Assembly (NCBI GenBank): GCA_018062885.1 | Contig: JAGORJ010000001.1 | Location: 151 to 64,150, forward strand | DNA from: Patescibacteria group bacterium | Lineage (GTDB): Bacteria; Patescibacteriota; Patescibacteriia; UBA1558; GWA2-36-10 | Direction: 5' to 3' | DNA length: 64,000 nucleotides | Part shown: positions 3,607 to 22,759 of the stretch, piece after piece | Position numbering within the stretch: the stretch's first letter is position 1 | Layout of the letters: every line of letters starts with the position of its first letter | Program-made: the position numbers and the translations under genes | Notes under the pieces: model-generated | Database searches by the model: none | What the model was told of the DNA's origin: nothing | The model's input: only the letters and a program-made list of their open reading frames with translations

Positions 3607-3648
3607 GACTTTTCTTCATAATAATGGGAAAATATAGTTAATAAATTT

Positions 3649-4509
3649 ATGCCAGAGCTACCAGAAGTAGAGACAATTAGACAGGGTTTGAGACAGAATA
3701 TTTTAGGTCAAAATATTATTGCTATAGAAGTCAAGAAAAAAAATATTGTCAAAAACCCTAAAAAATATTTTGTTGATTTTTTGCAAAATCAGCATTTTGT
3801 GGAAGTTTCTCGAGTCGGTAAACTTTTGATTTTTCATTTGCAAAATAAAGATTATTTTTTATTGATTCATTTGAAAATGACCGGTCAGTTGATTTTCCAG
3901 GACAAAACACAAACTTTGGCCGGTGGCCACAGTGGACCGAAAATAACCGATCTACCAAATAAATATTCACATGTCATTTTTCATTTTTCTTCTGATGTCA
4001 AATTATTTTTTAATGACTTGAGACAATTTGGTTATCTCAAAATAGTTGATCAAAAAGACAAAGAAAAAATAGTCGCACAATTTGGTATTGAGCCTTTGCA
4101 AGCAAATTTTACTTATCAAAATTTTTTAAAGATTTTCCAAAAAAGACGCATAGCCCTCAAAGCTGTCTTGCTCAATCAAAAGCTGATTGCAGGCCTTGGC
4201 AATATTTATGTAGATGAAGTTTGTCATCAGGCTGGAGTTTTGCCCCAAAGATTGGTCAATACCTTGACTGATGATGAGATCAAAAAACTTTTTAAGGCCA
4301 GTCAAAAAATTATAAAACTTGCCATTGCCAAAAGGGGAACAACTTTTAGTGATTATCGGGACACTGAAGGTAAAGCGGGAAATTTTAGTGATTATCTCAA
4401 AGTCTATGGTCGTGGCGGAGAACTTTGTTTGACTTGTGGACAAAGTAGCTTGAAAAAGATAAAATTAAATGGTAGAGGAACGACTTTTTGTGAGCAGTGT
4501 CAGAAATAG
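3649..4509 (+). CDS. mutM: Formamidopyrimidine-DNA glycosylase
   Basis: MPELPEVE N-terminus (catalytic Pro2/Glu3), H2TH region, C-terminal CxxC-x16-CxxC zinc finger. Confidence 0.85.
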   Translation: MPELPEVETIRQGLRQNILGQNIIAIEVKKKNIVKNPKKYFVDFLQNQHFVEVSRVGKLLIFHLQNKDYFLLIHLKMTGQLIFQDKTQTLAGGHSGPKITDLPNKYSHVIFHFSSDVKLFFNDLRQFGYLKIVDQKDKEKIVAQFGIEPLQANFTYQNFLKIFQKRRIALKAVLLNQKLIAGLGNIYVDEVCHQAGVLPQRLVNTLTDDEIKKLFKASQKIIKLAIAKRGTTFSDYRDTEGKAGNFSDYLKVYGRGGELCLTCGQSSLKKIKLNGRGTTFCEQCQK

Positions 4510-4582
4510 TTCTTGACAAGCTCGAGTTCTCGACAAGCTCGAACACGAAGTTTTTATGTCTTCGAGCGAAGTCGAGAAGTTG
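4510..4582. repeat. GC-richer structured intergenic element: direct 14-bp repeat (cttgacaagctcga / ctcgacaagctcga) inside a long imperfect inverted repeat
   Basis: ttctcgacaagctcgaacacgaag ... cttcgagcgaagtcgagaag can form about 20 bp of imperfect stem; sits between mutM stop and the next gene. Confidence 0.4.
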
Positions 4583-4611
4583 AAATACTAATTATTTAAA
4601 TTTTTAATAGA

Positions 4612-5253
4612 ATGAAACTACACAAATTATATTATCTAAATCTATTGTTAATTTTATTGACAATAGGCATGGCAATTTATTTCTATCCACTCTTACCAGA
4701 CAAAGTCGCAACTCATTGGAACTTTGCGGGCGAGGTAGATGGCTGGGGATCCAAAAATTTCCAAGTATTTTTTCTTCCACTTTTGATTATCGGCATTTAT
4801 TTACTTTTTCAGATTTTGCCAAAACTTGATCCAAAGAAAACAAACTATGAACAATTTGCTACGGCTTACAAAATTTTTCAGTTGGTCTTGATGGTTTTTT
4901 TCGTGATTATCTTCTTGGTGACAAATCTAGCCAACACTGGCGTGGAGATAGCCGTTGGTACAGTCGTGAGTTCCGCGATTGGTTTGATGTTTATCATTTT
5001 TGGTATTTTGATGCCCAAACTAAAAAATAATTGGTTTATCGGCATCAGGACGCCCTGGACTTTGTCTAGTGACTTTGTCTGGCAAAAAACTCACCAGCTA
5101 GGCAAATATATGTTTATAGTAGCCGGTGCTTTGTTTCTTTTTATTAGCTATTTACCTTTGCCACTGGTCTTGCCAAGCTTTATTTTGTTGATCGTTTTGT
5201 TATTAGTGCCAGTTGTTTATTCTTACTTTTTGTTTAAAAATCAGTCAAAGTAA
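4612..5253 (+). CDS. SdpI/YhfL-family membrane protein
   Basis: 6 TM helices and NWFIGIRTPWTLSSDFVWQKTHQLGKY motif characteristic of the SdpI family. Confidence 0.55.
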   Translation: MKLHKLYYLNLLLILLTIGMAIYFYPLLPDKVATHWNFAGEVDGWGSKNFQVFFLPLLIIGIYLLFQILPKLDPKKTNYEQFATAYKIFQLVLMVFFVIIFLVTNLANTGVEIAVGTVVSSAIGLMFIIFGILMPKLKNNWFIGIRTPWTLSSDFVWQKTHQLGKYMFIVAGALFLFISYLPLPLVLPSFILLIVLLLVPVVYSYFLFKNQSK

Positions 5254-5276
5254 ATATTTTAGCTAAAATTAGCCTC

Positions 5277-5306
5277 AAAACCCTTAGTTTTCGCTAGGGG
5301 TTTTAT
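5277..5306. terminator. Bidirectional-type hairpin terminator
   Basis: aaaaccc...ggggtttt stem flanked by A-run and T-run. Confidence 0.5.
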
Positions 5307-5308
5307 GT

Positions 5309-5337
5309 TTGACAGAAAATGCATAATATGATATAAT
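5309..5337 (+). promoter_or_regulatory. Perfect-consensus sigma70-type promoter (TTGACA-N17-TATAAT) for the high-GC gene 5426-6802
   Basis: TTGACA at 5309-5314, 17-nt spacer, TATAAT at 5332-5337; GGAG RBS 8 nt before the ATG at 5426. Confidence 0.55.
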
Positions 5338-5425
5338 ACAATGATTTGAACTAATTGAGTTGAAAAACACTTGATTAGCGTACATTGAAATTTGAGAACG
5401 AGAACAAATAAAAGCGGAGTGGAAA

Positions 5426-6802
5426 ATGGAAAATTGGTTTCATGAGAGTCTGCCACAGTGGTTCTGGGTCGCTTGGCCCTGGATCAAGGCAGCTTCTTTG
5501 CCTTTACTGGCAGCGTTCATGTTCTTGACCATGTTCTGGAAGTTTCCGTTCATCCAGAAGCGCAAGCAGACCATGTTCTGGGGCGTACTTGCTCTGGCAC
5601 TGGTCGCAACCTTGTGTTTACGCTTTTTTGTCTTTCAGCCTGAATCTTCGGGTACTGAAAAGCAAACCGGCGTGACCAATGTCGTCCAGCAAGATCAGCA
5701 AACTCAGATGATTCAGAAACAAGAAGAAAAGGACTCAGACAAGGTAAACTGGTGGCCATTCTTTGCGGTTTTGTTCGGTCTGAGTTTCGGCGGTGTGCTG
5801 ATGTACAGATCTTGGACCGGTAAAATCTGGCAAGATGTGGCGGTCAATAGTACCTATTGGCAGGGGGTTGTTTTCGGTGGGTTTTTTTTGATAGGATCCT
5901 TGATTATGGGTTTCTGGCCCAATCTCTTGCACATCTGGATTCCTCTCCTTGCCCTGTCTATCGCTGGGTCTGCGATGTATTCCGTGCCTATTCGCACTGG
6001 CTGGGTATTCACCGCTTTCAATGACCCTGTGTCCCACAAAGGCACTGGTTTACGCTGGTGGTTTCCATTGCTGTTACCATTCATTGGTATAATTCCTTTG
6101 AAAATAGAGTTTCGTGAACGAAACATCAAAAAAACAAAGGAGTTTTCCACTAGAGTGGACAGTGCGTCGACGCCCGGTCCTGGTCCCAAGAATACCAAGG
6201 GCGCGCAAGTCTCTTATGAGCTGCAATATTGGTATCTGGCGAACAAAAATCCAGAAGCCTATTTGGAGATGTCAGATGAAGATCGTGCGGATCTTGACAA
6301 GGCTATTGAGAGTTCCTTGCAAGGTTTCATGGCAGAGGCTACCCGAGTTTCTACCTTGGACGAGGCCATGGATTATCAAGTGGTCTTTCCTCCTTACGAG
6401 GTCAAGAAGTCAGCTGCGATCTGTGCAAAAGAAAGGAAAGATCCTCTGTATGCGAAGTGGTTTGCGTTGGTTGATTTGATCTTGCACCGTTGTGGTTCTG
6501 AGGTGGTGCACTTGAAGATCATTGATCGCGATGCAGACGCTGAAACCATGGAGCAGATGCGTCAGCTGGCACTGATGGCCTATAAGCTCAGTATGGCGCA
6601 GAAAGAAAAGGAGATCAAAAAAACACAAGGTCAAGCGGAAGGTGATCAGCTTTCTGCTACCATTGAGGCTTTGAAGAAGACTGGTTTGACTGCTGAGCAA
6701 GCTGCTACGCAGGCCTTCCAGCGCCTCACTTTGCCTGAGTTGAAGGGTGCGATCATTTCTTTGGGTGTTGATTCACCCGGCATCATGGTGAACAGGCCCT
6801 AA
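5426..6802 (+). CDS. Hypothetical polytopic membrane protein with Trp-rich N-terminus and about 200-aa soluble C-terminal domain; compositionally foreign (about 52% GC)
   Basis: 458 aa, at least 5 TM segments, Gly/Pro linker STPGPGPKNTKG, then helical domain; GGAG RBS; GC far above neighbours. Confidence 0.6.
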   Translation: MENWFHESLPQWFWVAWPWIKAASLPLLAAFMFLTMFWKFPFIQKRKQTMFWGVLALALVATLCLRFFVFQPESSGTEKQTGVTNVVQQDQQTQMIQKQEEKDSDKVNWWPFFAVLFGLSFGGVLMYRSWTGKIWQDVAVNSTYWQGVVFGGFFLIGSLIMGFWPNLLHIWIPLLALSIAGSAMYSVPIRTGWVFTAFNDPVSHKGTGLRWWFPLLLPFIGIIPLKIEFRERNIKKTKEFSTRVDSASTPGPGPKNTKGAQVSYELQYWYLANKNPEAYLEMSDEDRADLDKAIESSLQGFMAEATRVSTLDEAMDYQVVFPPYEVKKSAAICAKERKDPLYAKWFALVDLILHRCGSEVVHLKIIDRDADAETMEQMRQLALMAYKLSMAQKEKEIKKTQGQAEGDQLSATIEALKKTGLTAEQAATQAFQRLTLPELKGAIISLGVDSPGIMVNRP

Positions 6803-7437: not shown

Positions 7438-10400
7438 ATGGCGAATAAAAGAGATAGACGAGAAGGCGGGGAAGATCAAACTCCTGTACCAGAAGCAGAG
7501 GCTTCTTCTGCTCAATTAAGAGAATACGCTGAAACTACTGTAGCTGGTATGCGGCAAGCTCTTGAGGCTTTTAAACGTGCGGTTGAATTAGCGGCTAATA
7601 GCGCTTCTTTGATGGGAAAAGCAGAGAGATTATTTGCAAAAGCAGAACAGAAAATTAATGGTTTGGCTAGCACCATTCAAATAGATAATGTAAAAGATGG
7701 TTTTGTAGCTAACTTAAGTGGTTTAAAGGATAATGTGCTTGAAAATAATGAATCTAATAGAGATGAGTCTATTAATAATCCAGATGTACTTACTCTCAAA
7801 AAGTCTATTAGTGTTAATGAGGTATTAACAGAAGAAGAAAGAAATAATTTTTTAGGAGATATTAAACCAGACATGGATCAAGCTTCTTTAGAAGCGCTTG
7901 GTGCACGATTTTTTGTATTAGCACAAGAAAAATACAAAAATAAAATGCAGTCTTATTATGATAGCTTTATAAGTTCCAGGCCAACACTTAAAGATAGAGT
8001 CGCACAAACATTTATTAAATACAGCAGGGATTTATCAGTACAAACAACAGTTTTTGGTATGAGAAATATTTTTGCTCGTTTTGAAGAAGTGTTGCGAGAT
8101 TACTCTTCTGCTAGTCCATCCTCTCCAGATTCTCAGGAGTCAGGCAATAGCCTTCTGGCTCAAAAATTAACTCCAGACAATATTTTAGCTTCAGTTGAAA
8201 ACAATCAGCCTATTTATGTCAAAGTACATGTAGATGGTGGTGATTTGGAAACCGATTGGTTTGTTGAAAATATAAATATAGATACGCAAAAAGTTTTTGT
8301 TAGTAAAAAAAATGGGGATGATATTTCTAGTAAATGGTTTGATGTTGATGATTTACTCAAGTGGGATTTAGAAGTTGATGAATCTAATCATGGTGATACG
8401 CCTGAATCAGAGCCAAGTTCAGAAGATATCTCAAAAGAGAAAACGGAACTAATTAAAAAAGCGGCTGAGGAATTAGACGCTACCTCTGATTCTTTGAGAG
8501 CTGATGATTATGGTATTAATGCTGAAAAGGCAGCAGATTTAGTTAGTAGTAGTATTGAAAAAATTCAAAATCTTGACCATAATTTGACTATCAACGAATT
8601 AAATCAAGCCATTACAGAAATTAATAGTAGTTTAGATGTAAACTTGGAAGCATTAAAAGTTTCGTTAATAGACCCCAAAGAAGTTCCATCTGGCGCAGCA
8701 GAAGAGCCAGTAGAGACACCAGCCCCAGAAGATCCTGTCTTATCTACTGAACAAACTCCAGAGGTGCAACAAGAAAAATTAAAACTTGTTGATATCAAGC
8801 CAGAAAAAATTAAGGAGATTTTAGAAAGCGCTAATGTTGTTGCTCAGCTAAAAGATTTATTACTTCAAAAAGAAGGTGCTGGTTCAGCAGGCTTACAAGA
8901 AAGTATTGTTGAAGTTTTACAAAATTATTTTACCGAACAAAATTTAAATTTAAACTCAGAAGCACAGGAAAATTTGAAGGCAATGATTGAAAATCTAGCC
9001 GCAGAAACCTCTGAGCAAGTCACTCAAGCTTTTGCTAGCTCTTTGGAACAGCAGGCTAAAATTGATTCGGGTTGGTTTGATAAAGTCAAACAACATATGT
9101 CTGCTTTGATGGGTGCTAGATTAGCTACCACCTTTGCCATTGGTATTGGCGCAACTGCTTTAGCGCCAGTTATAGCTCCTATGTTAGGCATGGCAGCTGT
9201 TGGTTGGGGTACGGTTGGCCTTGCTGGTGGTATAGCGGGTTTAGGTAGATATTTTGGTAATAAAATTTTTACTAAATTTCAGAAGTCTGAAAAAAATATT
9301 AATAAATTAAAATCAAAAGAAGAAGAAAAAATAGAGCAAAGAAAAGCGGTTTTACTAGAAGAAAACTTTATAAATGTTGATTCTTTGGCAGCTGTAATGG
9401 CTAACACCTTAAGAACAAGCACTTCAGAAGATTTTCGTACTGGTCAAATCTTAGATAGTGAAGGTAATTTTTCTGAAGAAGTTGCTGAAACTTTGAAAGC
9501 AAATATTCAAAATTTACTGGATAATGATCCGCGTTATGTTGGTTTAAGTCCAGAGGAAAAAATACTAAAAGCAAAACAACTCTTTACTATTTTGTCCATG
9601 GAGCTTATTCAGCAAAGTAGAAATATTTTTGATTTAGATAAAGACAAAGAAGATCCTGCTATGATCAAAGCTATGCAAAAGTTGCAAAGTGTGTTGTCTG
9701 GAAAAATTGAAGGAATAGACAAACTAAATGTTGATAATGATTTTGCACAAGCAGGCGCAGCTGCTTTGGTGGGTGCTGGTTTAAGAGTTGCTTATACTCA
9801 CAGTGCACTTGCAGCTTCAGCAACTTCAGCTTTGTCTGGTGCTTTGATGGGCTGGTCTTTAGCTTCGGCTGAAGCAAAGCATTCTATGCAAGAACAATAT
9901 TATAAGGATGTTGAGGAAATCTTAGATTTAGGCGAGAGTATGCTTAGTGATGTCGTTTCTAATAAAAATTTTGAAAATAAAAATGGAGAGTGGAAGCAAA
10001 AAAAATACATAGATTTAGAAAATAAGGTTATTCCTGTAAAATCAATGCTATCTTTAAAGCTTGGTGATAATTATATTCTCACAGACCCGGTACTTCGAGC
10101 TAGGGCAGAAAATTTTATTCATCAATTTGGTCAATATAAAACTCTTGAGATGAAGATTGAGGGTACCCGTATTTATGATCTTGATCAAAATCAACTCTTA
10201 AAAAATTTACAGAAGAATATAAATTCAAAAAATGACCATTCTGTAGAAGAAATAGCTAGAAACCAAAAATGGGATCAGCGTTTTACTAACTTGTTTAGGT
10301 ATTCTGCTACACTCACTGGCGCAGCTATTGGTGGAATTATTGGTTTTGCCTCTGGAGGGTCAATGGAGTCAGCTGAAAATAACACAGGGTCTTCTGCTCA

Positions 10401-12327
10401 AGAAACAAATACTGCGGACTCTTTAAGTGTAGCTTCACAAGATTCTACAAAAGTTTCGGCAGATAGCTTGAAGCAGTTTACGGAAAATCCAGCAGATTCC
10501 ACAGCAACAGAAGCATCTGATGTTGTAAATAATGCAAATGTAACAGAAAATTCTGGTTCTGCTTCAGTGTCGGGAAATTCTCCGGATCAAGCTGCTACAA
10601 CTGTGATTGGTACACATGAAGTTATTACCACAAAGACCGGCACTTTAGAAAATGTTATTCGTACAGAAGATGGTATGCAAGGCAATGATTCTATCTGGCG
10701 TTCTACCAAAGATATAATCAAAAGTGACCCAGAAAAATTCGGCTACACCGGTGATCATGATGATCTTGGAGCTATCTCAAAATTTGCAGAAGCCAAAACT
10801 GCTAGTTTAGTGAATCAGCTTGAGCAAGCACAAGGTGGTGATTTAGCTGATTTGGTACATAATGGTGATAAGGTGATTGTAAGTTTTGAGGATGGTAAGC
10901 CCGTTTTAAGCTTTGAAGATAGTTCTGGTATAAAAGCTGGTCATTTGCCTGATTTTACAGCCAAGACAGAAATACCAAGTCCAGAAACGATAATGCCTGA
11001 AACACCTTTGGTTCCAGAAGCTCCAGTATTACCAGTGGTGAATGCAGACGAGTTCTTTGGTGGTAAAATTGCTTATTCTGCTGATTTATTTAAAGAAGTG
11101 GCTGATAAGCCAGAAATTTTGAATCAAGTGGCAGAAAAAGTTTTTGAAAATGGCTCGCCAGAAGTACAGAAACAATTTTTACATGATTTGTATCCAGATT
11201 CTTTTATGGATAATACAAATAAAGCATCAGTATTTTTGCACTATGTGGAAAATGCACCAGATATTAGTGTGAAAGATTTAGACAGCGTCAAAGATTTAGA
11301 TACCTGGGTAAATAATTTTGATGCACAAGCTAATAGTGATGATTTACCAGGCAAAAATTGGGAAGTTAGATTATTGACTGATGATAAAGGTAAGACATTT
11401 TATGCTATGGTGCATGAAAGTAAAAATCGTCTTTTTGCTCAAGATGAATTTGAAGTCAATAATCTCAGTGGTGAAATTTTCAAACTAAAAGAAAAGGTTT
11501 TAGAAAACTGGCTTCAAAATTCAGAAAACAATTTAGTGCCAGCAGCAGAAGAATTACCACCTACAACGACCGCACCTGAAACTCCAGTTGCTCCAATTGA
11601 GCCGATTATTGAAGCTCCAGATACCAATGCTAATGAAGCACAAGGATTATCTAGTGAAGATTCAGCTACATCAGAAAATATACCAAGTTCAGGTAGGGTG
11701 GATGATATCCGGTTAGAGGGTGGCCAAACTCTAAATTTTAATTATGATGAGTCTGGTAAGGTGACTGGGATTGGTCTGGGGGGTGAAATTTCTGGTGAGC
11801 CTGAAGTATTAAGAGGTGATTTTCGTGCTATTTTGAGAATGAAGCTTGGTAATCTTAGGCCAGGTGACATCAGTGTGGTGTCGCAAGTTGCTCGAAAAGT
11901 TGATTTACAAATGGATTTTTTGAATAATTTAGTAGAAAATGGTAAAGCTGATACTCCAGAAGCAGAGTTCTTGGCTGATAGAATCTTGAAAGATGTTGCT
12001 GAAGTCGAAAAGAAATATGGCGATGTGTTTAAAGACATTAAAACGGAGGCTGATGGTAAATTAAGTTTTGTGGAGACTGTTCCAGAAGCTGCGCCCACAG
12101 CGCCAATCGAGACTCCAGTTGAAGCTCCAATAGAAACAGAAATATCGACTGGTGGTGGCGCTAATTTTAAGATTTTATCTCAAATGCAGGAAAACGCTAA
12201 ATTCTATGACACACAGGATAATGTATTTACCAAAATAGACGGTAAAATATTTAGAGCCGATCCTTTTGGTGAAATGACTATTGAGGTGAGGGGTCAAAAA
12301 GATTTAGATAATTTATATCAAAAATAA
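7438..12327 (+). CDS. Giant (1629 aa) acidic low-complexity protein with internal glycine-zipper TM hairpins and PExP-rich linkers
   Basis: No signal peptide; about 12% Asp+Glu; hydrophobic Gly/Ala-rich segments (ATTFAIGIGATALAPVIAPMLGMAAVGWGTVGLAGGIAGLG; AGAAALVGAGL...SGALMGWSLA; LTGAAIGGIIGFASGG); repeated P-E-x-P/APIE motifs. Confidence 0.7.
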   Translation: MANKRDRREGGEDQTPVPEAEASSAQLREYAETTVAGMRQALEAFKRAVELAANSASLMGKAERLFAKAEQKINGLASTIQIDNVKDGFVANLSGLKDNVLENNESNRDESINNPDVLTLKKSISVNEVLTEEERNNFLGDIKPDMDQASLEALGARFFVLAQEKYKNKMQSYYDSFISSRPTLKDRVAQTFIKYSRDLSVQTTVFGMRNIFARFEEVLRDYSSASPSSPDSQESGNSLLAQKLTPDNILASVENNQPIYVKVHVDGGDLETDWFVENINIDTQKVFVSKKNGDDISSKWFDVDDLLKWDLEVDESNHGDTPESEPSSEDISKEKTELIKKAAEELDATSDSLRADDYGINAEKAADLVSSSIEKIQNLDHNLTINELNQAITEINSSLDVNLEALKVSLIDPKEVPSGAAEEPVETPAPEDPVLSTEQTPEVQQEKLKLVDIKPEKIKEILESANVVAQLKDLLLQKEGAGSAGLQESIVEVLQNYFTEQNLNLNSEAQENLKAMIENLAAETSEQVTQAFASSLEQQAKIDSGWFDKVKQHMSALMGARLATTFAIGIGATALAPVIAPMLGMAAVGWGTVGLAGGIAGLGRYFGNKIFTKFQKSEKNINKLKSKEEEKIEQRKAVLLEENFINVDSLAAVMANTLRTSTSEDFRTGQILDSEGNFSEEVAETLKANIQNLLDNDPRYVGLSPEEKILKAKQLFTILSMELIQQSRNIFDLDKDKEDPAMIKAMQKLQSVLSGKIEGIDKLNVDNDFAQAGAAALVGAGLRVAYTHSALAASATSALSGALMGWSLASAEAKHSMQEQYYKDVEEILDLGESMLSDVVSNKNFENKNGEWKQKKYIDLENKVIPVKSMLSLKLGDNYILTDPVLRARAENFIHQFGQYKTLEMKIEGTRIYDLDQNQLLKNLQKNINSKNDHSVEEIARNQKWDQRFTNLFRYSATLTGAAIGGIIGFASGGSMESAENNTGSSAQETNTADSLSVASQDSTKVSADSLKQFTENPADSTATEASDVVNNANVTENSGSASVSGNSPDQAATTVIGTHEVITTKTGTLENVIRTEDGMQGNDSIWRSTKDIIKSDPEKFGYTGDHDDLGAISKFAEAKTASLVNQLEQAQGGDLADLVHNGDKVIVSFEDGKPVLSFEDSSGIKAGHLPDFTAKTEIPSPETIMPETPLVPEAPVLPVVNADEFFGGKIAYSADLFKEVADKPEILNQVAEKVFENGSPEVQKQFLHDLYPDSFMDNTNKASVFLHYVENAPDISVKDLDSVKDLDTWVNNFDAQANSDDLPGKNWEVRLLTDDKGKTFYAMVHESKNRLFAQDEFEVNNLSGEIFKLKEKVLENWLQNSENNLVPAAEELPPTTTAPETPVAPIEPIIEAPDTNANEAQGLSSEDSATSENIPSSGRVDDIRLEGGQTLNFNYDESGKVTGIGLGGEISGEPEVLRGDFRAILRMKLGNLRPGDISVVSQVARKVDLQMDFLNNLVENGKADTPEAEFLADRILKDVAEVEKKYGDVFKDIKTEADGKLSFVETVPEAAPTAPIETPVEAPIETEISTGGGANFKILSQMQENAKFYDTQDNVFTKIDGKIFRADPFGEMTIEVRGQKDLDNLYQK

Positions 12328-12461: not shown

Positions 12462-13394
12462 CTAGTGTCGGTGTGGGCGGGGCATGGCGCCGCGTTTGGA
12501 TTTCTCCTTTGCGGGCTGCTGCTCCGTTGTTGGTAAGGCGCTGAGTGAGATTTGCTCCGTGACGGGTTTTGGTACCGTCAAGGTTTGGATGAAGTCAAAG
12601 TACTGCACTACGCCGTGCTTGACTTTCATCTGCTCCCAGCGTTTGCCGCGAGTGGTGCTCAGTTGCTCATCGACGGCAGCGAGCCCGGTGTTTAGCAAGG
12701 TATTCATTGTGTCTTGCATACACCAGAGTTCGCTGTTTCTTGTTTCAGAGTTTATGAACTCACCGCGCCCGACGAATCCGTTCATGTCGATTGGCGTAGG
12801 CGTCCAGTCCTTGTTCTCCAAGACCTGGAGTCTCCCATCAAGCTCCTTGTCCTTCTCTTCCAGGGCCAGCAAGCGCTGGGCGTTGGGGGAGTTGGCCATG
12901 ATCTGGGCGATCATCGGCCGACTGTCTTGCTTGCTGTTGACGACTCGTTCAATCGCTCGACTCAATGAATCTACTTGGGCAGGAGTGTAGCCATTGACTG
13001 CAGTGTAGCCAGCAGATCCAAGAGCTGCATACATCGCACGACGTCCCATCCATTGGATATGGTTGGATTGCTGTGCGGCAGCGGTAGTAAACTTCGGGTA
13101 CCAGCATACCCGGTTGTCCTCGATCTTGCAGTCGCCCTTGTAATAGACTGTGTCCCCATTGGACACCTCAAATGTCAGGCGGTACTGCTTGATCGGCTGG
13201 CCCTTATTGTTCCATTTCACCAGCCATGGGGCCATCTCGGGCTTGGTTGGGGCCCAGCTGGCCATGGTGGCGGAGCTGTCGGGGTTGGTTTTGGTCAGGT
13301 TGCTGTCGTCGGCGTCTGCCTGGCTGATGTTGCTCGTGATGAGCGTCATGATGGCGATGAGAGCCATCCAAATGTACGAAGTGTGATTCTTCAT
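12462..13394 (-). CDS. Secreted protein of unknown function, high-GC (about 55%); probable start at second Met (MKNHTSYIW)
   Basis: ORF track gives 12462-13415; GGAAGGAAG RBS precedes the Met at 13394; signal peptide IWMALIAIMTLITSNISQADA; coiled-coil LLALEEKDKELDGRLQVLE. Confidence 0.6.
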   Translation of the reverse strand: MKNHTSYIWMALIAIMTLITSNISQADADDSNLTKTNPDSSATMASWAPTKPEMAPWLVKWNNKGQPIKQYRLTFEVSNGDTVYYKGDCKIEDNRVCWYPKFTTAAAQQSNHIQWMGRRAMYAALGSAGYTAVNGYTPAQVDSLSRAIERVVNSKQDSRPMIAQIMANSPNAQRLLALEEKDKELDGRLQVLENKDWTPTPIDMNGFVGRGEFINSETRNSELWCMQDTMNTLLNTGLAAVDEQLSTTRGKRWEQMKVKHGVVQYFDFIQTLTVPKPVTEQISLSALPTTEQQPAKEKSKRGAMPRPHRH

Positions 13395-13483
13395 GGGTCT
13401 TCCTTCCGTTCTCATATTTTTGGGCTAAAAGCCCGTTTGTGTAGGTGCGATTCGGCTAGAAACAGATTCTAGCTTGACTAAGT

Positions 13484-13512
13484 ATTATATACTATTTTAA
13501 AACATTTGTCAA
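13484..13512 (-). promoter_or_regulatory. Perfect-consensus TTGACA-N17-TATAAT promoter on minus strand driving 12462-13394
   Basis: rc of 13507-13512 is TTGACA, rc of 13484-13489 is TATAAT, 17-nt spacer. Confidence 0.5.
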
Positions 13513-13562
13513 GGATTTTTGGAACCGTCTAGTTTTGTTAGGCTTTTTGTAAAAATATAAGA

Positions 13563-13591
13563 TTGACAGATTTTGATTTTTAGTGTATGAT
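13563..13591 (+). promoter_or_regulatory. Near-consensus TTGACA-N17-TATGAT promoter driving 13682-14680
   Basis: TTGACA 13563-13568, 17-nt spacer, TATGAT 13586-13591; divergent from the preceding promoter. Confidence 0.5.
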
Positions 13592-13681
13592 AATAAATCA
13601 AACAATTTTGCCTTACAAGGCATTTGTTTGCTCGATCTTCGACAAAATCATCACACAAAAAGCATATCAATGGGGGAAAGC

Positions 13682-14680
13682 ATGAAAAACGCGATGTTGG
13701 GACTCATTTTTGGCCTTTTGGCCATGCTCCAGTTCGCTTCGGCAGCTGAAAAGGTGGGAACGTCTTTTCTTAATCGTTCTGATCTTGAGGTTTGGGGCAC
13801 CAGTCAGTTGGTTACCACTTTCGAGGGAGACAGTCTGGCGAGAAACAAATGGTCCTATGCTATTTTTGGTGCCGAGCTCTGGATCAACGGCCGTCAGTCC
13901 TTGGATGTCTTCTCGATCAAGGCTGAAGGACAGCTGGCCTATGGCATCAAGGCCGAGAATCTGCTGACAGAGGCTTTTGCTCAGCAAGATTGGCGTCAGG
14001 CTTCAGGTCTGGGTGCCAGTTTTCGAGCTGGACAGTACCAGCATTTGAGCAGGGCAAACTTCGCTCTTCCGCATGAAGCTGCTCTGCCTCGTCGGATGGA
14101 CGTGGAAGTGCCCTTTACCGAGAATCTCTCGGGCGGAGCATTTTCCGCCTACTGGGATCAACAGGATACGCTCAAGATTCCTGCTGGTTTCAAAATGAGC
14201 TGGGGCTTTGGTAAGTCCAGGCCGATGCCACAGCAGAGCTGGGACACGCTATTAGTAGCGTTTCCGGAACCGCGGTGGAGCTGGGGAGCTGCATACCACA
14301 TCACAGGGTATTTTGGGGCCACAGAGCTCCATCTGGGCTGGGAAAAGGAAGTGGGGCACAATGCTTCGCTTTATATTGCCCCCCATGTAAATGTGGACTT
14401 GGGCTTGAGCTGGACCTACAGTTTTCACCCACACTCCGAAATTGCGCCGGACAATCTCTACGCAGCCAAGCTCAGCTGGAGATTCTGGCAGTCGCAAACC
14501 GAGAAGCACAGCTTCTCGGTGGTCAGTGGCCTGGATTTCGGAGACCAAACCGAAGCCTTGCAAGCCTTGTTGGGCTATCAGTGGAAGCTGCCCATCGAAG
14601 GTTTCGTGAAGCTTCAGGCGGGTTATGATGGTCGCTATGAGCAGCCGGTGGTTGCTCTGCGTTACTATCTGAGACTGTGA
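13682..14680 (+). CDS. Secreted beta-strand-rich protein, outer-membrane beta-barrel-like, high-GC (about 57%); start at internal Met (MKNAMLGLIF)
   Basis: ORF track 13583-14680; GGGGGAAAG RBS before the ATG at 13682; signal peptide LAMLQFASAAEK; alternating hydrophobic/polar strands through the C-terminus (LSWRFW, SFSVVSGLDFG, LLGYQWKL, VVALRYYLRL). Confidence 0.55.
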   Translation: MKNAMLGLIFGLLAMLQFASAAEKVGTSFLNRSDLEVWGTSQLVTTFEGDSLARNKWSYAIFGAELWINGRQSLDVFSIKAEGQLAYGIKAENLLTEAFAQQDWRQASGLGASFRAGQYQHLSRANFALPHEAALPRRMDVEVPFTENLSGGAFSAYWDQQDTLKIPAGFKMSWGFGKSRPMPQQSWDTLLVAFPEPRWSWGAAYHITGYFGATELHLGWEKEVGHNASLYIAPHVNVDLGLSWTYSFHPHSEIAPDNLYAAKLSWRFWQSQTEKHSFSVVSGLDFGDQTEALQALLGYQWKLPIEGFVKLQAGYDGRYEQPVVALRYYLRL

Positions 14681-16402: not shown

Positions 16403-19354
16403 ATGAAGAAAATAATCAGTGTTATTACTATCAGTAGTTTAATTTTCAGCGCCAGCATGAGCTATACTTTGCCAGCTTTGGCTATGGGTGTAGAAGTTGC
16501 AGAAAAAGGCGTTGATCTTATCTCTGATCAAATTAAAGAAAATATTAAGGATGGCCCTAGTGTGCCTGGCATCTCAGATTCTAGTGGCGCTAGCTCGTCT
16601 TCTAGTAAAAATAAGGCTAATGCGCGCAATCAAAGGCCTGTATTAGAAAGCATTGCTTTCAAAATGTCACCAGAACAAATGTCCGATGATCCAAGTGATT
16701 GGCAAACTTTGTATGGTAACTTAAGTAGAGGATTTTTTATTAATATTCCTACCAGTAGTTTTCATTATGGCTATCAGTTTATAAAAATCTCTGACAGTAG
16801 TGTAAATACTGGCATTGCCTCTGGCAGTCATCCTTTTACTTTGATTTCTGCTCCAGCTGCTTTTGATACTTATTATCAAGCCTCAGATCCGATGCATGCA
16901 ATCGCCAATGGTGAAGCGCCGATATTTTATATGCGCTCCCATGATGATAATTCATTGAGCTTGCTCAATGGTTTGAACAGTCAAAGACATTGGAGAATAG
17001 GTAGTACTTGGCCAGCTGGTGAGTACAGAGTTTCTGGTCGTTTGATGGGTGAAAATGGTTTAGACAGTGAGCCTATCATTATGTCATTTTTCATTTCTCA
17101 CAATGATGACAATGGTGATCATAATTATGTGCCTGAAACAGTTGTGGATAACTATACAGTAGCATCTGGCGCTTTACTAAATGTTAATGTAGCTAATGGC
17201 ATTTTATCTAATGATATTGATTTAGACGGTCCAGATGAATTAATAGCCTTAAGAACTAGTATTGTTGATGGTTTGGAGACTGAAGATTTATTGCACGGTA
17301 GATTTAATCTACGCGCCGACGGTAGTTTTGCTTACCAGTCAGTAGATGGTTTTGCTGGTACTGCGGTATTTTATTATCGAGCTTTTGATGGGCAAGATTC
17401 TTCTCGAACAACCATTGTGACTATCAATGTCACAGCTACAGACTCCAATCAAGAACCGATAGCAGTAGAAGATTCTTATACAGTACGATCTGGTTCTTTG
17501 TTAAATCTTACTGAAGATAATGGTGTTTTATCAAATGACATTGATTTAGATGGTCCAAATGATTTAACAGCTAAAAGAACTAGTATAGTTATTGGCATTG
17601 ATCCTATCCCAGATTTATTGCACGGTAAATTCACTTTCCGTTCAGATGGTAGCTTTGCTTACACATCAGTAGATGGTTTTGTCGGTGTAGCTAAATTTTG
17701 GTACAAAGCTTTTGATGGTGAAGATTATTCTCGAGCAACTTTAGTGACTATCAATGTCACAGCCTCAGACGCAAATCAAGCGCCATTGGCCGTCACAGAT
17801 TCTTATTCAGTACGATCTGGTTCTTTGTTAAATCTTACTGAAGATAATGGTGTTTTATCAAATGACATTGATTTAGATGGTCCAAATGATTTAACAGCTA
17901 AAAGAACTAGCATAGTTATTGGCATTGATCCTATCCCAGATTTATTGCACGGTAAATTCACTTTCCGTTCAGATGGTAGCTTTGCTTACACATCAGTAGA
18001 TGGTTTTGTCGGTGTAGCTAAATTTTGGTACAAAGCTTTTGATGGTGAAGATTATTCTCGAGCAACTTTAGTGACTATCAATGTCACAGCCTCAAGCTCA
18101 AATCAAGCGCCGGTAGCTGTAGCTGATACTTATGAAACTGTAAATAACAGTGACTTAAATGTTTCAGTTGCTAGTGGAGTTTTAGTAAATGATACAGACA
18201 ACGAGCATCAAGCTTTAAGAGCGGTTTTAAATACCACGGTGTCTAACGGTGTCTTGACTTTAAATTCAGATGGCTCGTTTAATTATAATGCCACTGATGG
18301 TTTTGTTGGTAATGATGTCTTTACTTATCGTGCTTTTGATGGCGCTTTGTACTCAGAGATTGTTAATGTGAGCATCAATGTCACAGCTCCATCAAGTGGT
18401 GGTGGCGGCGGAGGAGGCGGCGGCGGATCTACACGTAATCCTCGTAATGCCAATATTGTCATCAACAATAACGCCGTTTCTACCAATACTGTTTCGGTCA
18501 ATTTGACTTTATCAGCTGACAATATGATCGCTACTTATGCACCTTTAGAAATGCGTATTAGTAATTTTTCCAACTTTAATAACGCTTCTTGGCGTCCTTA
18601 TGCCACAACTACTTCTTGGACTTTATTGAGTGGTAATGGCAACAAAACTGTGTATGCTCAGTTCAAAAATAAAAGAGGTGTAAGCAGCAATGTTTCTGAC
18701 AGTATTCAGCTTATCGCTGGTCAAGTTTTGGGCGACAGAGATTGTAGTGGAGTTGGCGGTAGTTTGTTCTCTTTGTTAAATCGTAAAGATGCAACTGTTT
18801 ATTATATCAGCTCAGATTGTAAAAAACACGCTTTCCCTGATCCAAAAACTTATTACACTTGGTATAATGATTTTAGCAAGGTTGTTAAAGTGACACCTAG
18901 TGAATTAGATTTATATTTAGAAGGTAATGTTATCTCTTATCGTCCAGGTATCAAGCTGGTGAAAACAGTGGATACAAATAGAGTTTATGCCGTTGAGCCT
19001 GATGGCGTTTTGCGTCATATCACTTCTCCAGCTATGGCTAGAGCTTTATATGGTGATAATTGGCAAAATTTAGTACAAGATGTTATCACTGGTTATTTTG
19101 CTACTACCTATACTAAAGGATCTTCTTTGAATGATTTATTACCTACAGGTACTTTAGCTAAAGAGCCTGATAATGATACTATCTACTATGTCCAAAATGG
19201 TCAGAAGCGTCCTTTCTCTAGCTTGGCTGCCTTTAATGCCAACTATTTCCGTATGAAAGATGTGATAATTAAAAATAGTTTAGCAAATTATGGCGTGGGT
19301 TCTACTATTAATCGTTTTGATGCTTCATTGTTGCCTTACCCATTGATTAACTAA
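16403..19354 (+). CDS. Secreted 983-aa surface adhesin-like protein with 5 tandem about 100-aa Ig-like/cadherin-like ('tandem-95' type) repeats, poly-Gly linker and C-terminal repeated module
   Basis: Signal peptide; repeats of V-x-D-x-Y-x-V...GVLSNDIDLDGP...GSFAY-x-SVDGF-x-G...AFDG...INVTA; GGGGGGGGGG at aa 666-675. Confidence 0.75.
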   Translation: MKKIISVITISSLIFSASMSYTLPALAMGVEVAEKGVDLISDQIKENIKDGPSVPGISDSSGASSSSSKNKANARNQRPVLESIAFKMSPEQMSDDPSDWQTLYGNLSRGFFINIPTSSFHYGYQFIKISDSSVNTGIASGSHPFTLISAPAAFDTYYQASDPMHAIANGEAPIFYMRSHDDNSLSLLNGLNSQRHWRIGSTWPAGEYRVSGRLMGENGLDSEPIIMSFFISHNDDNGDHNYVPETVVDNYTVASGALLNVNVANGILSNDIDLDGPDELIALRTSIVDGLETEDLLHGRFNLRADGSFAYQSVDGFAGTAVFYYRAFDGQDSSRTTIVTINVTATDSNQEPIAVEDSYTVRSGSLLNLTEDNGVLSNDIDLDGPNDLTAKRTSIVIGIDPIPDLLHGKFTFRSDGSFAYTSVDGFVGVAKFWYKAFDGEDYSRATLVTINVTASDANQAPLAVTDSYSVRSGSLLNLTEDNGVLSNDIDLDGPNDLTAKRTSIVIGIDPIPDLLHGKFTFRSDGSFAYTSVDGFVGVAKFWYKAFDGEDYSRATLVTINVTASSSNQAPVAVADTYETVNNSDLNVSVASGVLVNDTDNEHQALRAVLNTTVSNGVLTLNSDGSFNYNATDGFVGNDVFTYRAFDGALYSEIVNVSINVTAPSSGGGGGGGGGGSTRNPRNANIVINNNAVSTNTVSVNLTLSADNMIATYAPLEMRISNFSNFNNASWRPYATTTSWTLLSGNGNKTVYAQFKNKRGVSSNVSDSIQLIAGQVLGDRDCSGVGGSLFSLLNRKDATVYYISSDCKKHAFPDPKTYYTWYNDFSKVVKVTPSELDLYLEGNVISYRPGIKLVKTVDTNRVYAVEPDGVLRHITSPAMARALYGDNWQNLVQDVITGYFATTYTKGSSLNDLLPTGTLAKEPDNDTIYYVQNGQKRPFSSLAAFNANYFRMKDVIIKNSLANYGVGSTINRFDASLLPYPLIN
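17471..18094 (+). repeat. Near-identical tandem direct DNA repeat, period 327 bp, two copies, inside the adhesin gene
   Basis: 17471-17767 and 17798-18094 differ at only a few positions and encode identical 99-aa Ig-like modules. Confidence 0.8.
18398..18427 (+). repeat. (GGN)10 simple-sequence tract encoding Gly10
   Basis: ggtggtggcggcggaggaggcggcggcgga in frame with the adhesin. Confidence 0.8.
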
Positions 19355-19369
19355 AAATTATAATGCAAA

Positions 19370-19410
19370 TAAAAAAACTTCCAAGCTATTTAGTTTGGAA
19401 GTTTTTTATT
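19370..19410. terminator. Bidirectional terminator between adhesin (+) and dus (-)
   Basis: acttccaa / ttggaagt 8-bp stem flanked by A-run and T-run. Confidence 0.6.
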
Positions 19411-20380
19411 CTAAAGATTTAAATATTTTTTCTACCTGCTTTGGATTTTCTACGGCGACCAAAAGTTTTCTTAGATTGCTAGCATCAGGACGGCCTTTGA
19501 CGTAAAACAATAAATGTTTACGCATTTCTCTGAAACCACTAGCGCCTTTGTTTTCATAAAGTAATTCAGCATGTGTGATAGCGGTTTTTTGAATTTCTGG
19601 CCAAGTGATTTCTTGGTAAGTTCCGGTACTAATATAGTCTTTGATTTGTTTAAAGAGCCACGGCTGTCCATAAAGAGCTCGAGACAGAGCAATGCCGTCA
19701 GCTTGAGTATAGCGTAGGTCATCAACGACAGACTCAATCGTTTGAAAAGAACCGTTAATCAAGAAAACACCAGTCTTGAAGGCTTGTTTTGCTTCTTTTA
19801 GAGTCTCCAAGTTGACTGGTCCGGTAAATGGTTTTTCGTAAGTACGACCATGAATGATCATCGCTTTGACTGGTAAATCACTAAGTGTCTTAATAAAGTC
19901 AAAAACTGTGATTTGACCTTGTTCAGGTTGACCTTGAATAGCATTGAGACCCAGTCTGCTTTTGACAGAGACTGGTAAATCAACTGCTTCTATGGTAGTG
20001 GCTACTATTTTTTTGACAGTATCCAAGTCTCTCAAAAGGCAAATGCCGCCACCGTGTCCAGCTACTTTTTTGGCTGGACAGCCAAAGTTGATATCAATAC
20101 CGGCTATGCCTAGAGATTCGACGACTTTGGCAGCTTTTGGGTACATATCAACTCTTTTGCCAAACAATTGCACTACTACTGGCTGTTCAGCGGCCGCGTA
20201 TTCAATCATTTTGAGGGTTTTTTTGCTATTATAATTTAGCGCCTCAGCTGAGACAAACTCGGTGTGAACGACATCAGCTCCCCACATTTTACAAATTTGG
20301 CGCCAAGCCGAATCAGTGATGCCGGCCATAGGCGTCATCGAAATGATTGGTTTATTTAGTTGTTCCCAAAAATTGTTCAT
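19406..20380 (-). CDS. dus: tRNA-dihydrouridine synthase
   Basis: MTPMAGITDSAWRQICKMWGADVVHTEFVSAEAL N-terminal FMN/TIM-barrel region; HGRTYE and conserved Cys (FGCPAKKV). Confidence 0.85.
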   Translation of the reverse strand: MNNFWEQLNKPIISMTPMAGITDSAWRQICKMWGADVVHTEFVSAEALNYNSKKTLKMIEYAAAEQPVVVQLFGKRVDMYPKAAKVVESLGIAGIDINFGCPAKKVAGHGGGICLLRDLDTVKKIVATTIEAVDLPVSVKSRLGLNAIQGQPEQGQITVFDFIKTLSDLPVKAMIIHGRTYEKPFTGPVNLETLKEAKQAFKTGVFLINGSFQTIESVVDDLRYTQADGIALSRALYGQPWLFKQIKDYISTGTYQEITWPEIQKTAITHAELLYENKGASGFREMRKHLLFYVKGRPDASNLRKLLVAVENPKQVEKIFKSLE

Positions 20381-20449
20381 GGCAATTGGATTATTAAAAC
20401 TCCATATTTTATGGAGTTATAACATAGATTTGAAATTTTGTAAAAGCCT

Positions 20450-21370
20450 TTAGAGCCAGCCCTTTTTACGGAAAAATATCAAGAAAGACATAATCATACA
20501 AATCATGATGCTAAGTATGATAAAAAAATCATAAGGCCCATTAACTAGGGGCATTTGTTTAGCATTCATACCAAAGATAGAAGCGATGAGGTTGGCAGGG
20601 ATAATGACCACAGAAATGACAGTCAAAATTTTCATGATGTCATTGGTTTTGTTGGTGATCAATGATTCATTGGTTTCTTGAAAGGCATTGATATTTTCTT
20701 TTTGAGTTTCCAAGATATCCCAAATATCTTTGGTGCGGTCTAAAATATTGCTAAAATAAAGATTGGTTTGGTCTGGCATAAAAAATCTATTTTTAGCATC
20801 CATCAATTTTTTGATGATATTTTTATGCGCTTGCATAATTTTACGCAAGTTGACAATGTTTCTTTTGATGTTGAGGATTTCTCTGACTACTTTTTGTTCC
20901 TCGCCTTTAAAGATTCTTTTTTCTACATCTTCAATGTCTTCTGAAACATGGTCAAGCATGGGCAGAGTGTGTGTTTGTAAGCGGTGTAAGATTTCGTATA
21001 CCAAGTTGACTTGAAAGCCTGACATGTACAGGTCTTGACTTTGAATATTGTTTTGTAGCTCTTGGAAAAAATCATTGACCACTGGATTTAAGCCATCGCT
21101 GAAAGTGATGACATATTTTGCGCCCACAAAAAAATCAATCTCACTTGATTCTATTTCTTTAGTGTGGCGGTTATAAACCGGAAAAGTCAAAATAAAAAAT
21201 AAGTAATTGTGATATTGACTGATTTGTGGTCTTTGGACTCTGACCAAACAATCTTCTAAGTCTAATTTGTGAAATTTGTATTCATCACCAATAAACTCAA
21301 TCTCTTTACGAGTTGCTTTGTGAATATGAGTCCAAGATATTTTTTTTGTTTTTATTTTTTGTACTGACAT
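20450..21370 (-). CDS. corA: CorA-family Mg2+/Co2+ transporter
   Basis: Two C-terminal TM helices with the GMN signature (IFGMNAKQMP). Confidence 0.8.
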   Translation of the reverse strand: MSVQKIKTKKISWTHIHKATRKEIEFIGDEYKFHKLDLEDCLVRVQRPQISQYHNYLFFILTFPVYNRHTKEIESSEIDFFVGAKYVITFSDGLNPVVNDFFQELQNNIQSQDLYMSGFQVNLVYEILHRLQTHTLPMLDHVSEDIEDVEKRIFKGEEQKVVREILNIKRNIVNLRKIMQAHKNIIKKLMDAKNRFFMPDQTNLYFSNILDRTKDIWDILETQKENINAFQETNESLITNKTNDIMKILTVISVVIIPANLIASIFGMNAKQMPLVNGPYDFFIILSIMICMIMSFLIFFRKKGWL

Positions 21371-21382
21371 AATTTTTGAGTG

Positions 21383-21411
21383 AAATACTATATCATTATA
21401 GTATTTTTTTT
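21383..21411. promoter_or_regulatory. Perfect 10-bp-arm palindrome in the corA/ftsB divergent region
   Basis: aaatactata-tcat-tatagtattt followed by a T-run; possible operator or attenuator. Confidence 0.3.
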
Positions 21412-21490
21412 TGAATTAGTAAATTGCAAAATAGCTTTTGGAAAAAATAGTTGATTTATGTTATAATTATTTTGCTTAAATTATTTTTAG

Positions 21491-21871
21491 ATGAGAGATA
21501 GACAGACGGGATCAATTTGGCGCAGTATTTATAACTCTAATATTTTTATTAGTGTTTTGTTGGTGATTTTGATCTTATCTATTTTGAAAGTCGGCAAAGA
21601 ATTAGCCAGACGACATCAGATAAATAAAGAGATTAATTATTTAAACCAACAATTAGCCGAAGCTCAGCTTAATCGTGATAAGCTACAAGATTTGATTTCA
21701 TATTTGGAAAGTGATCAATACGTAGAGGAGCAAGCTCGTTCTCAGCTAAACCTAAGTAAACCAGGTGAAAAAAGAGTTGATTTGTCTCTAGCACCAGAAA
21801 CTTTAGCGAGTCAGGAAGCTACTGATGATAGATCAAATGCCAAAAAATGGTTTGCTTATTTTTTTAAATAG
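21491..21871 (+). CDS. ftsB: Septum formation initiator (FtsB/DivIC family)
   Basis: N-terminal TM helix, then coiled coil LNQQLAEAQLNRDKLQDLISYLESDQYVEEQARSQLNL typical of FtsB/DivIC. Confidence 0.65.
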   Translation: MRDRQTGSIWRSIYNSNIFISVLLVILILSILKVGKELARRHQINKEINYLNQQLAEAQLNRDKLQDLISYLESDQYVEEQARSQLNLSKPGEKRVDLSLAPETLASQEATDDRSNAKKWFAYFFK

Positions 21872-21889
21872 TTTTTAAGGTATCATTGC

Positions 21890-22759
21890 ATGAAAAAGAA
21901 ATTGATTTTAGCTGCTAGTATATTGGGTTTTTTACTTTTGCTTTCTTGGTTGAGCTCTATTTTGATTTTACAAAATAAATTACCTCTCAATGTAGCGATG
22001 CTTTTGAGTCGTTTTTATAATATCAAAGCCGCTGAGGTAGTGGAGCAAAATAATACCTACCCAGTTTATTTGGCTGATTATTTGAGACATCGCACTTCAC
22101 TGGAGAGTTTCAGTAAAAATTTTACTAGCACCGAAGAAGTCAATATAGATGATTTAGCTTGGCAGGGTGTTGTCAGGGATTTGTGGGTAAATAATTTGGC
22201 TAAAAATTTTAAAATTGAAGTCGCAGATTCTGAAATAGAAGAGTATTTGCAGTTTACTTTTAGTGTGGAAGACTCAGCTAAATTAGCTGAATTTGCCAAA
22301 AATGATTATAATCTTTCTCTCAAAGATTTTAAAAACAAAGTTATCCGACAGTATTTACTGGAGATGAAGGTTTATCAGAAATTGTTGGAAAACTACAATG
22401 ACAAAGAAGGTATCACCAAAGCGCAAGACGCTTATGCGGAGCTAGAAGCTGGCACAGATTTTGCCGAAGTTGCGCAAAAATATTCTTCAAGTCCAAACAG
22501 TGCGGAAACAAGTATTTGGGTCAAAGAGTCTGAGTGGTCTGATTTTTATGAGCCAATCAAAGACTTGTCTATTGGAGACTTTAGTAAAATTGTGATCACG
22601 CCTGGTGCTTATGTTATTTGGCGTTTAGAAAATACTTTGACTGATGAGAACAATGAAAAAGCTTGGGAACTTAAATCAATTATTATAGACGCTAAACTGA
22701 TGGATGATTTCTTTCAGCAATACTTTACTATTATTCGTATTAACAAATTTTACCAATGA
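21890..22759 (+). CDS. Membrane-anchored SurA/PrsA-like protein with degenerate PpiC-type (parvulin) domain
   Basis: N-terminal TM; C-terminal AQDAYAELEAGTDFAEVAQKYSSSP...IGDFSKIVITPGAYVIWRLEN resembles parvulin fold but lacks some catalytic residues. Confidence 0.45.
   Translation: MKKKLILAASILGFLLLLSWLSSILILQNKLPLNVAMLLSRFYNIKAAEVVEQNNTYPVYLADYLRHRTSLESFSKNFTSTEEVNIDDLAWQGVVRDLWVNNLAKNFKIEVADSEIEEYLQFTFSVEDSAKLAEFAKNDYNLSLKDFKNKVIRQYLLEMKVYQKLLENYNDKEGITKAQDAYAELEAGTDFAEVAQKYSSSPNSAETSIWVKESEWSDFYEPIKDLSIGDFSKIVITPGAYVIWRLENTLTDENNEKAWELKSIIIDAKLMDDFFQQYFTIIRINKFYQ

Follow-up and report, generated by a model that had tools for sequence, protein, structure and literature searches.

Background

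Bacterial surface proteins with tandem domains highly identical at the DNA level, the number of which varies from strain to strain by homologous recombination, have been described as Periscope Proteins, and include SasG, Rib/alpha C, Sgo_0707 SHIRT and CdrA (PMC8201768, PMC9704523). Gene conversion has been reported between the modules of assembly-line polyketide synthase genes (PMC8256042) and within repeat-rich loci of Mycobacterium tuberculosis (PMC12046097), and Big_9 counts among the stalk domains listed for fibrillar adhesin-like proteins (PMC8286594). The locus analysed here is contained within a stretch of 64,000 nucleotides from a Patescibacteria group bacterium (assembly GCA_018062885.1, contig JAGORJ010000001.1, positions 151 to 64,150), referred to below as the window. 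A gene in this stretch, predicted to encode a secreted, surface-type repeat protein of 983 aa, contains two adjacent and almost identical modules. Comparison with three related strains shows that the duplication is old, and very probably the identity of the two modules reflects recent homogenisation.

The repeated modules

According to the list of open reading frames (ORFs) and their translations, the repeats are located within a single ORF on the + strand (16403-19354, stop codon included). Two tandem arrays only were detected by Tandem Repeats Finder (TRF) in the whole window. The first, contained in this ORF, spans positions 17153-18133 (period 327, 3.0 copies, 86% matches), and the second is a short repeat of 35 nt and period 17 at 4508-4542. 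Within the ORF four modules were delimited, all on the + strand. Module 1 (M1; 17144-17470) is Big_9/cadherin-like, measures 109 aa with its 3' linker, and is 75% identical to modules 2 and 3. Module 2 (M2; 17471-17797) and module 3 (M3; 17798-18124) are each formed by a core (17471-17767 and 17798-18094) and by a position-specific 3' linker (17768-17797 and 18095-18124). Module 4 (M4; 18125-18397), also Big_9/cadherin-like, shows about 55% identity to M2 and M3, and is devoid of a 30-nt segment which modules 1-3 have.

A base-by-base comparison at an offset of 327 revealed 2 mismatches over the 297 positions of the M2 and M3 cores. They are located at 17480 (A/T), where the change is non-synonymous (Thr360 vs Ser469), and at 17584 (T/C), where it is synonymous, and they delimit two perfect runs of 103 nt (17481-17583) and 183 nt (17585-17767). 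Both blocks are in frame within the one ORF. The near-identical tract measures 298 nt, less than the period of 327 nt, and the 30-nt linkers are divergent: 11 of 30 positions differ between the M1/M2 and M2/M3 linkers, and 10 of 30 between the M2/M3 and M3/M4 linkers. The difference between core (2/297) and linker (10/30) is highly significant (Fisher P = 5e-10).

The initial annotation of this sequence had located the two copies correctly, as 295 of 297 bases are shared, and had rightly described the neighboring repeats as far more diverged (75% identity for M1 vs M2, 55% for M3 vs M4). Other details need to be amended: the near-perfect duplication, reported as 327 bp long, is restricted to 298 nt; the modules described as identical over 99 aa share 98 of 99 residues, due to the Thr/Ser change at 17480; and the homologous modules, counted as five, are four, in agreement with the four stretches matched by the Pfam Big_9 model.

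Related loci and module number

An exact look-up of the 983-aa product gave no match. Searches with the whole protein were dominated by unrelated Big_9 proteins and missed a close fragment (L009), while the C-terminal part used as a query gave 11 matches and the N-terminal part one. Relatives were reached through the neighboring genes, and modules were cut by hand from the alignments. The order CAP-domain gene, repeat-protein gene, dus, corA, divIC is found in L001, L004, L009, L010 and L011. In the following, W indicates the window, N the locus L009, L the locus L001 and X the single module of L004 described below, while digits indicate the module number.

The closest relatives are L001 (JGI 3300056626; about 92% nucleotide identity over the gene) and L009 (JGI 3300056850; 92.8%), both with four modules. 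L004 (JACCDG011135433.1; about 88-90% nucleotide identity) has three modules, and is an outgroup to W, L001 and L009, as indicated by the M1 identities (94.8/97.2 vs 88.7-90.5). Three modules are also found in L002 (LaPlata bin; 59% aa identity), and two in both L011/P0005 (Logan; 49% aa identity) and L010 (ENA; C-terminal 308 aa 58% identical), where a gap of undetermined bases (N-gap) falls in the repeat region. L006 (GCA_020047435.1), a separate submission, is 100% identical to the window over 17641-22043. The Logan contigs L007 and L008 end outside the repeat, and L003 and L005 share the C-terminal domain only, at 29% identity. No array was found by TRF in L001, despite the presence of the modules: in this strain M2 and M3 have diverged further from each other, and indels are present in module 2.

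The reading frame of the gene is broken in two of these sequences. In L001, module 2 contains a +2 nt and a +1 nt change, 150 nt apart (L001:3299 and 3450), along with an in-frame insertion of 21 nt (L001:3512-3532). In L009 the frame is broken by a 1-nt deletion in the GGCCGTC of the M2/M3 linker. The CAP-domain gene region of L009 is also called as several shorter genes, and for this reason sequencing error is the likely cause of the frame breaks; pseudogenisation or phase variation would be a less likely one. L009 (repeat-protein gene at 3638-6588, - strand) is in addition a mosaic: its identity to the window is 97-99% over 14.8-17.7 kb, and from 18.3 kb on it follows L001 with 99.3-99.7% identity, the background switching inside module 3. 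Two origins are conceivable, namely natural recombination between strains, or an assembly chimera with its junction in the repeat.

Age of the duplication

M2 and M3 are 86.2% identical in both L001 and L009, where their cores differ at 36 and 37 of 297 sites, with a dS of about 0.24. At this rate, the probability of finding two or fewer differences, as in the window, is 1e-14 (binomial). The three linkers of both strains match the window linkers by position at 8 of 8 diagnostic sites, and the sequence of the M2/M3 linker is the same in W, L001 and L009, apart from the 1-nt deletion in L009. L001 and L009 are about 7% diverged from the window over the gene. Since the duplication junction is common to W, L001 and L009, the duplication which generated M2 and M3 predates the split of these strains.

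The earlier limit for the event is provided by L004, in which a single module of 324 nt, X (L004:7072-7395), is found in place of M2 and M3. X does not contain a 3-nt insertion common to M2 and M3 in all strains, its diagnostic states are an interleaved mix of those of M2 and M3 and not a two-part hybrid, and its 3' linker has the appearance of a shared precursor of those of M2 and M3. Given the missing insertion and the interleaved states, X is most simply interpreted as the unduplicated ancestor. On the basis of the same two features, the possibility that the three-module state of L004 was produced by a deletion between M2 and M3 was rejected. The duplication therefore occurred after the split of L004, on the branch leading to W, L001 and L009. 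Judging from the counts in the related loci, the array appears to have grown stepwise within the clade, from two modules (L010/L011) to three (L002/L004) and four.

The initial annotation regarded the pair as a recent intragenic duplication, to be dated by aligning the modules. The alignment gives a different answer, the event being older than the separation from L001 and L009, in which M2 and M3 are already present, about 86% identical and with distinct linkers. The recombination-driven change in repeat number, which had also been suggested, is in part supported by the recombination between repeats described below and by the counts of two, three and four modules across the clade; however, no difference in module number occurs among the three closest strains, as W, L001 and L009 all have four.

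Evidence for gene conversion between modules 2 and 3

On these grounds, module 3 of the window has very probably been homogenised in recent times by intragenic gene conversion, acting on an older pair and mainly in the direction from M2, the main donor, to M3, the main acceptor. The identity values are those expected from concerted evolution. For M2 the window is close to its orthologues (W2-N2 97.5%, W2-L2 93.0%), whereas W3 is more similar to its paralogue W2 (96.3%, and 99.3% over the core) than to its orthologues N3 (89.9%) and L3 (91.7%); the W3-N2 identity is 94.2%. The homogenised tract is bounded, with position-specific states at 8 of 8 linker diagnostic sites and differences at only 2 of 297 core positions.

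In order to follow the origin of the single bases, 19 core positions were used as diagnostic sites, at which N2 equals L2, N3 equals L3, and the M2 and M3 bases differ. At 13 of them W3 holds the M2 base, five in a 5' patch (17831, 17854, 17860, 17868, 17874) and eight in a 3' patch (17983, 17984, 17989, 18014, 18015, 18021, 18061, 18062). The M3 base is retained at five (17807, 17893, 17896, 17910, 17911), and at the remaining one a new base is found in both W2 and W3. In the W3 linker all eight diagnostic sites are in the M3 state. W2 retains the M2 base at 15 of the 19 core sites and at all eight linker sites; at three core sites (17566, 17569, 17583) it has the M3 base instead, so that M3-type bases are confined in module 2 to a short middle segment.

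Module 3 is thus a mosaic, which may be read from left to right (+ strand) as follows: an M3-type site at 17807, which marks the 5' bound; a first converted patch, extending at most over 17808-17892; a segment retaining module-3 bases (17893-17911), the module-2 counterpart of which (17566-17583) is also M3-type; a second converted patch, extending at most over 17912-18094 and forming the 183-nt perfect repeat with 17585-17767; and finally the M3-type linker. A single continuous conversion tract was considered and excluded on the basis of the M3 states at 17911 and at 17893-17910. The simplest account would involve two or more tracts transferred from M2 to M3, or else a single heteroduplex repaired in patches. 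As for the middle segment (17566-17583 / 17893-17910), it may either derive from a transfer in the opposite direction or have been already alike in the two modules; X agrees with the W state at 2 of its 3 sites 17566, 17569 and 17583.

Two further details are in line with copying. In the window a double substitution has produced an AAA codon in both copies (17573-17575 and 17900-17902), in place of the ATT or ATC of the relatives; a W-specific double change present in both copies is expected if one was copied from the other. In addition, at both residual differences (17480/17807 and 17584/17911) each copy has retained the ancestral base of its position, as found in L001 and L009, and neither copy has changed since the last exchange. 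Transfer from M2 to M3 has taken place more than once in the clade, since module 3 of L001 contains a short M2-type patch (CTGACTGAAGATAAT), where module 3 of L009 is X-like.

Several observations weigh against this interpretation, or limit it. The donor pattern is not one clean tract. When X is used as outgroup in a four-sequence comparison, the polarity at 12 sites is mixed, 7 being M3-to-M2 and 5 M2-to-M3; as a consequence, the number and direction of the single events are uncertain. The uncertainty does not extend to the main direction, nor to conversion as such. The genomes with four modules are only three, and one of them, L009, is the W-like/L001-like mosaic with its switch in module 3, so that the evidence from N2 and N3 is not entirely independent. 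Sequencing errors may be present in L001 and L009, as the gene is frameshifted in both. Finally, additional core-plus-linker units would leave no trace in a short-read graph, and the copy number in the population is based on assemblies.

Alternative explanations

The converted allele could have been imported whole from another strain by homologous recombination. Exchanges of this kind would fit the identity between W and L001, which over 12 kb varies between 86% and 99.7%, as well as the change of background of L009 within the gene. Import, however, merely shifts the conversion event to another strain; moreover, the donor-type core is nearest to the window's own module 2, including the W-specific changes found in both copies. 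This explanation is therefore considered unlikely.

Repeats are classic assembly traps, and the pair could be an artefact, in which the same core has been threaded twice between true linkers, or in which the real copy number is another. The region is indeed problematic, as the initial annotation had anticipated by calling it a hotspot for assembly collapse: L006 is interrupted within the repeat, L010 has its N-gap there, and L009, possibly chimeric at this point, switches strain inside module 3. Short-read assemblies of this Patescibacteria lineage thus break, gap or turn chimeric here, which is of relevance for annotation and binning. Exactly 127 nt of the module-2 core (17641-17767) are included in L006 before it breaks off, as would presumably happen at a repeat node with a graph assembler of k = 127. 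The same contig, however, covers all of module 3 together with both of its unique linkers, in a form identical to the window. The converted sites of module 3 are either within 127 nt of a unique linker or chained to it through informative sites less than 73 nt apart, so that unique sequence anchors the k-mers which contain the converted bases; and the preservation of two single-base differences indicates that the assembler kept the copies separated. An artefact is accordingly quite improbable as an explanation of the pair, and the converted module 3 is probably real. Since a k-mer graph devoid of depth information cannot separate two copies from more, and further core-plus-linker units share the same k-mers, the true copy number may be larger. 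For a trouble spot of this kind, a module count obtained from one assembly is best regarded as a minimum.

A recent 327-bp tandem duplication in the lineage of the window genome, with copies not yet diverged, would account for the period of exactly 327, for the two near-identical in-frame units and for the presence, in the related lineage L004, of one module fewer at exactly this place. A near-identical intragenic repeat pair alone, however, is not evidence of a new duplication. Whatever its breakpoints, a single 327-nt duplication generates 327 consecutive identical bases, and the alike tract, flanked by linkers which differ at 10-11 of 30 positions, is too short for a fresh event. The M1/M2, M2/M3 and M3/M4 linkers are each conserved in L001 and L009, where M2 and M3 are 12% diverged, and the two residual differences are ancestral rather than new. 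The duplication being recent is thus very improbable.

The possibility that selection or convergence at the protein level keeps the modules identical, because adjacent modules may share the constraint of a same binding surface, may be practically dismissed, since synonymous sites are homogenised as well: dS is 0.014 for the W2-W3 cores against 0.24 for the same pair in L009 (N2-N3), and 0.08-0.10 for the W-N orthologues.

As a separate observation, module 3 changes rapidly at the protein level in the strains where it is unconverted: the dN/dS ratio is about 0.55 for N3-L3 and about 0.44 for M2 vs M3, with values of 0.03-0.07 for the M1 orthologues. The pattern is compatible with selection being either relaxed or diversifying on module 3, the younger of the two copies.

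Proposed mechanism

The history favored here, an old duplication followed by conversion, may be outlined as follows. A tandem duplication would have produced M2 and M3 after the split of L004 and before that of L001 and L009. Later, after the strains had separated, non-reciprocal homologous recombination would have copied M2 over the core of M3, through an exchange between misaligned copies located either on sister chromosomes or within one chromosome. The cores which recombined would have been roughly 86-88% identical, and the tracts would end in the strongly conserved module ends, having 5' GATTCTTAT... and 3' ...ATCAATGTCACAGCCTCA as sequences. The exchange having stopped in these conserved ends, each of the three linkers would still show the old sequence typical of its position. 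As for the enzymes, a RecA-type process is presumed, either accompanied by patchy repair of mismatches or acting repeatedly; RecJ and LexA are encoded within the window. No associated element such as GRINS was seen at the repeat, where no search aimed at one was made.

With respect to N3, conversion exchanged 18 residues of module 3, and with respect to L3, 11. Its consequences may extend to the stability of the array. RecA-type recombination needs only a few tens of bases of identity. The perfect repeats of 103 and 183 nt are far above this requirement, and in-frame gain or loss of a 327-bp unit should consequently be likelier now than before. A more speculative proposal, regarded as doubtful, is that the homogenised pair is the first step towards a length-variable stalk of the periscope type in an episymbiotic bacterium of the Candidate Phyla Radiation (CPR), the M2-to-M3 transfer, visible as a short patch in L001 and as an almost entire core in the window, being recurrent and selected. 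If so, the perfect repeats would let the population switch among three, four and five modules, and the switching would tune the projection of an N-terminal host-binding domain.

Architecture of the encoded protein

The four modules fit known families well. Big_9 (PF17963) matches four stretches, with E = 1.4e-43 and a score of 148.1 bits, well above the cut-off of 23.6, which assigns the protein to this family; four stretches each are also matched by Cadherin_4 (1.1e-39) and Cadherin_5 (2.4e-24). Similarly, the NCBIfam model NF012211 (tandem-95 repeat) matches four stretches with 107.7 bits, over a cut-off of 90, and the assignment to this family holds as well. A NDxDxDG motif is contained in modules 1-3.

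The remaining parts of the protein gave nothing significant in Pfam, NCBIfam and PDB sequence searches, for either the N- or the C-terminal region. The N-terminus begins with a probable Sec signal peptide (16403-16483, +), read by eye from the translation (MKK, a hydrophobic stretch, an ALA/MG junction). It is followed by a region of about 220 aa (16484-17143, +), of no known family according to Pfam and PDB searches, with no sequence match in either even at E <= 10; in the database search with this region the sole match was a fragment of the L001 orthologue, besides the syntenic orthologues recovered as DNA loci.

Downstream of module 4, an imperfect GGN repeat encodes a linker of ten glycines (18398-18427, +). 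Its length varies among the relatives, from Gly10 in the window to Gly9 in L001 and L009, GGSSGGSSGGGG in L004, G8RG4 in L002 and G5 in L011. The C-terminal 308 aa (18428-19351, +), for which a confident AlphaFold2 model was obtained (mean pLDDT 88.8), consist of a beta-sandwich (about aa 676-770) and of an alpha/beta domain of about 200 aa. The former is FN3/PKD-like by predicted fold only, and lies outside the 327-bp repeat family. The latter (18719-19351, aa 773-983; block pLDDT mostly 84-96) is without a Pfam family or a match to solved structures, and is found also in about 10 other proteins with different N-terminal parts. It is a candidate undescribed domain family, possibly with an anchoring or binding role.

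The initial annotation called the gene an adhesin. The designation is plausible from the domain types; however, no known adhesive or anchoring domain was found in the 983-aa protein by Pfam and PDB searches, and no LPXTG or other anchor motif could be recognized by eye in the translation. The product may be a surface stalk or an adhesin.

As for other signals within the array, no competing ORF of at least 60 aa is found on either strand; an ORF of 65 aa on the reverse strand (18325-18522) touches no more than the last part of module 4, along with the Gly linker. Promoter- and terminator-like sites in the repeat are not in excess over shuffled sequence.

Other features of the window

A GC-rich island is located at 12500-14500, just upstream of the CAP-domain and repeat-protein genes, with 52-55% GC vs 33-40% in the surrounding sequence. 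It contains two ORFs (12462-13415, -, and 13583-14680, +), neither with a Pfam family, and is the most divergent stretch among the strains (66-72% identity for W-L009 and 51-68% for W-L004), compared to 95-100% for nearby genes. The island may have been horizontally acquired or rapidly replaced. About 4 kb upstream of the repeat protein, an ORF of 1629 aa (7438-12327), with no significant Pfam or NCBIfam family, possibly encodes another large secreted protein.

Comparison with known systems

Among described systems, Periscope Proteins are the nearest concept. The locus shares with them a predicted secreted product with tandem beta-sandwich modules of about 100 aa, one pair of which is 99% identical at the DNA level, recombination between the repeats, and orthologues with two to four modules. 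Differences are also evident. Only two of the four modules are alike here, the others being 55-75% identical; no variation in repeat number was seen among the three closest strains, and it is found only between more distant lineages, in a handful of genomes. Neither a wall- or membrane-anchor motif nor a recognised functional head domain was found, and the organism is an uncultured CPR bacterium. Unlike fibrillar adhesin-like proteins, the product combines Big_9 stalk domains with no Pfam adhesive domain detected, and is thus not assigned to that group. Compared to many tandem-95/Big_9 proteins, it has four modules instead of 10 or more, and end domains of no described family.

With the cases of concerted evolution described in bacteria the locus shares paralogues more similar than orthologues, a sharp and patchy tract, unaffected flanks and the homogenisation of synonymous sites. 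It differs from them in that only one pair of neighboring 327-bp modules, within one small gene, is involved. The phenomenon itself is well established, and the repeat protein analysed here, of surface type, represents an ordinary case of concerted evolution: a small example of it, joined to a stepwise gain of modules, in a poorly known and probably host-attached group of bacteria.

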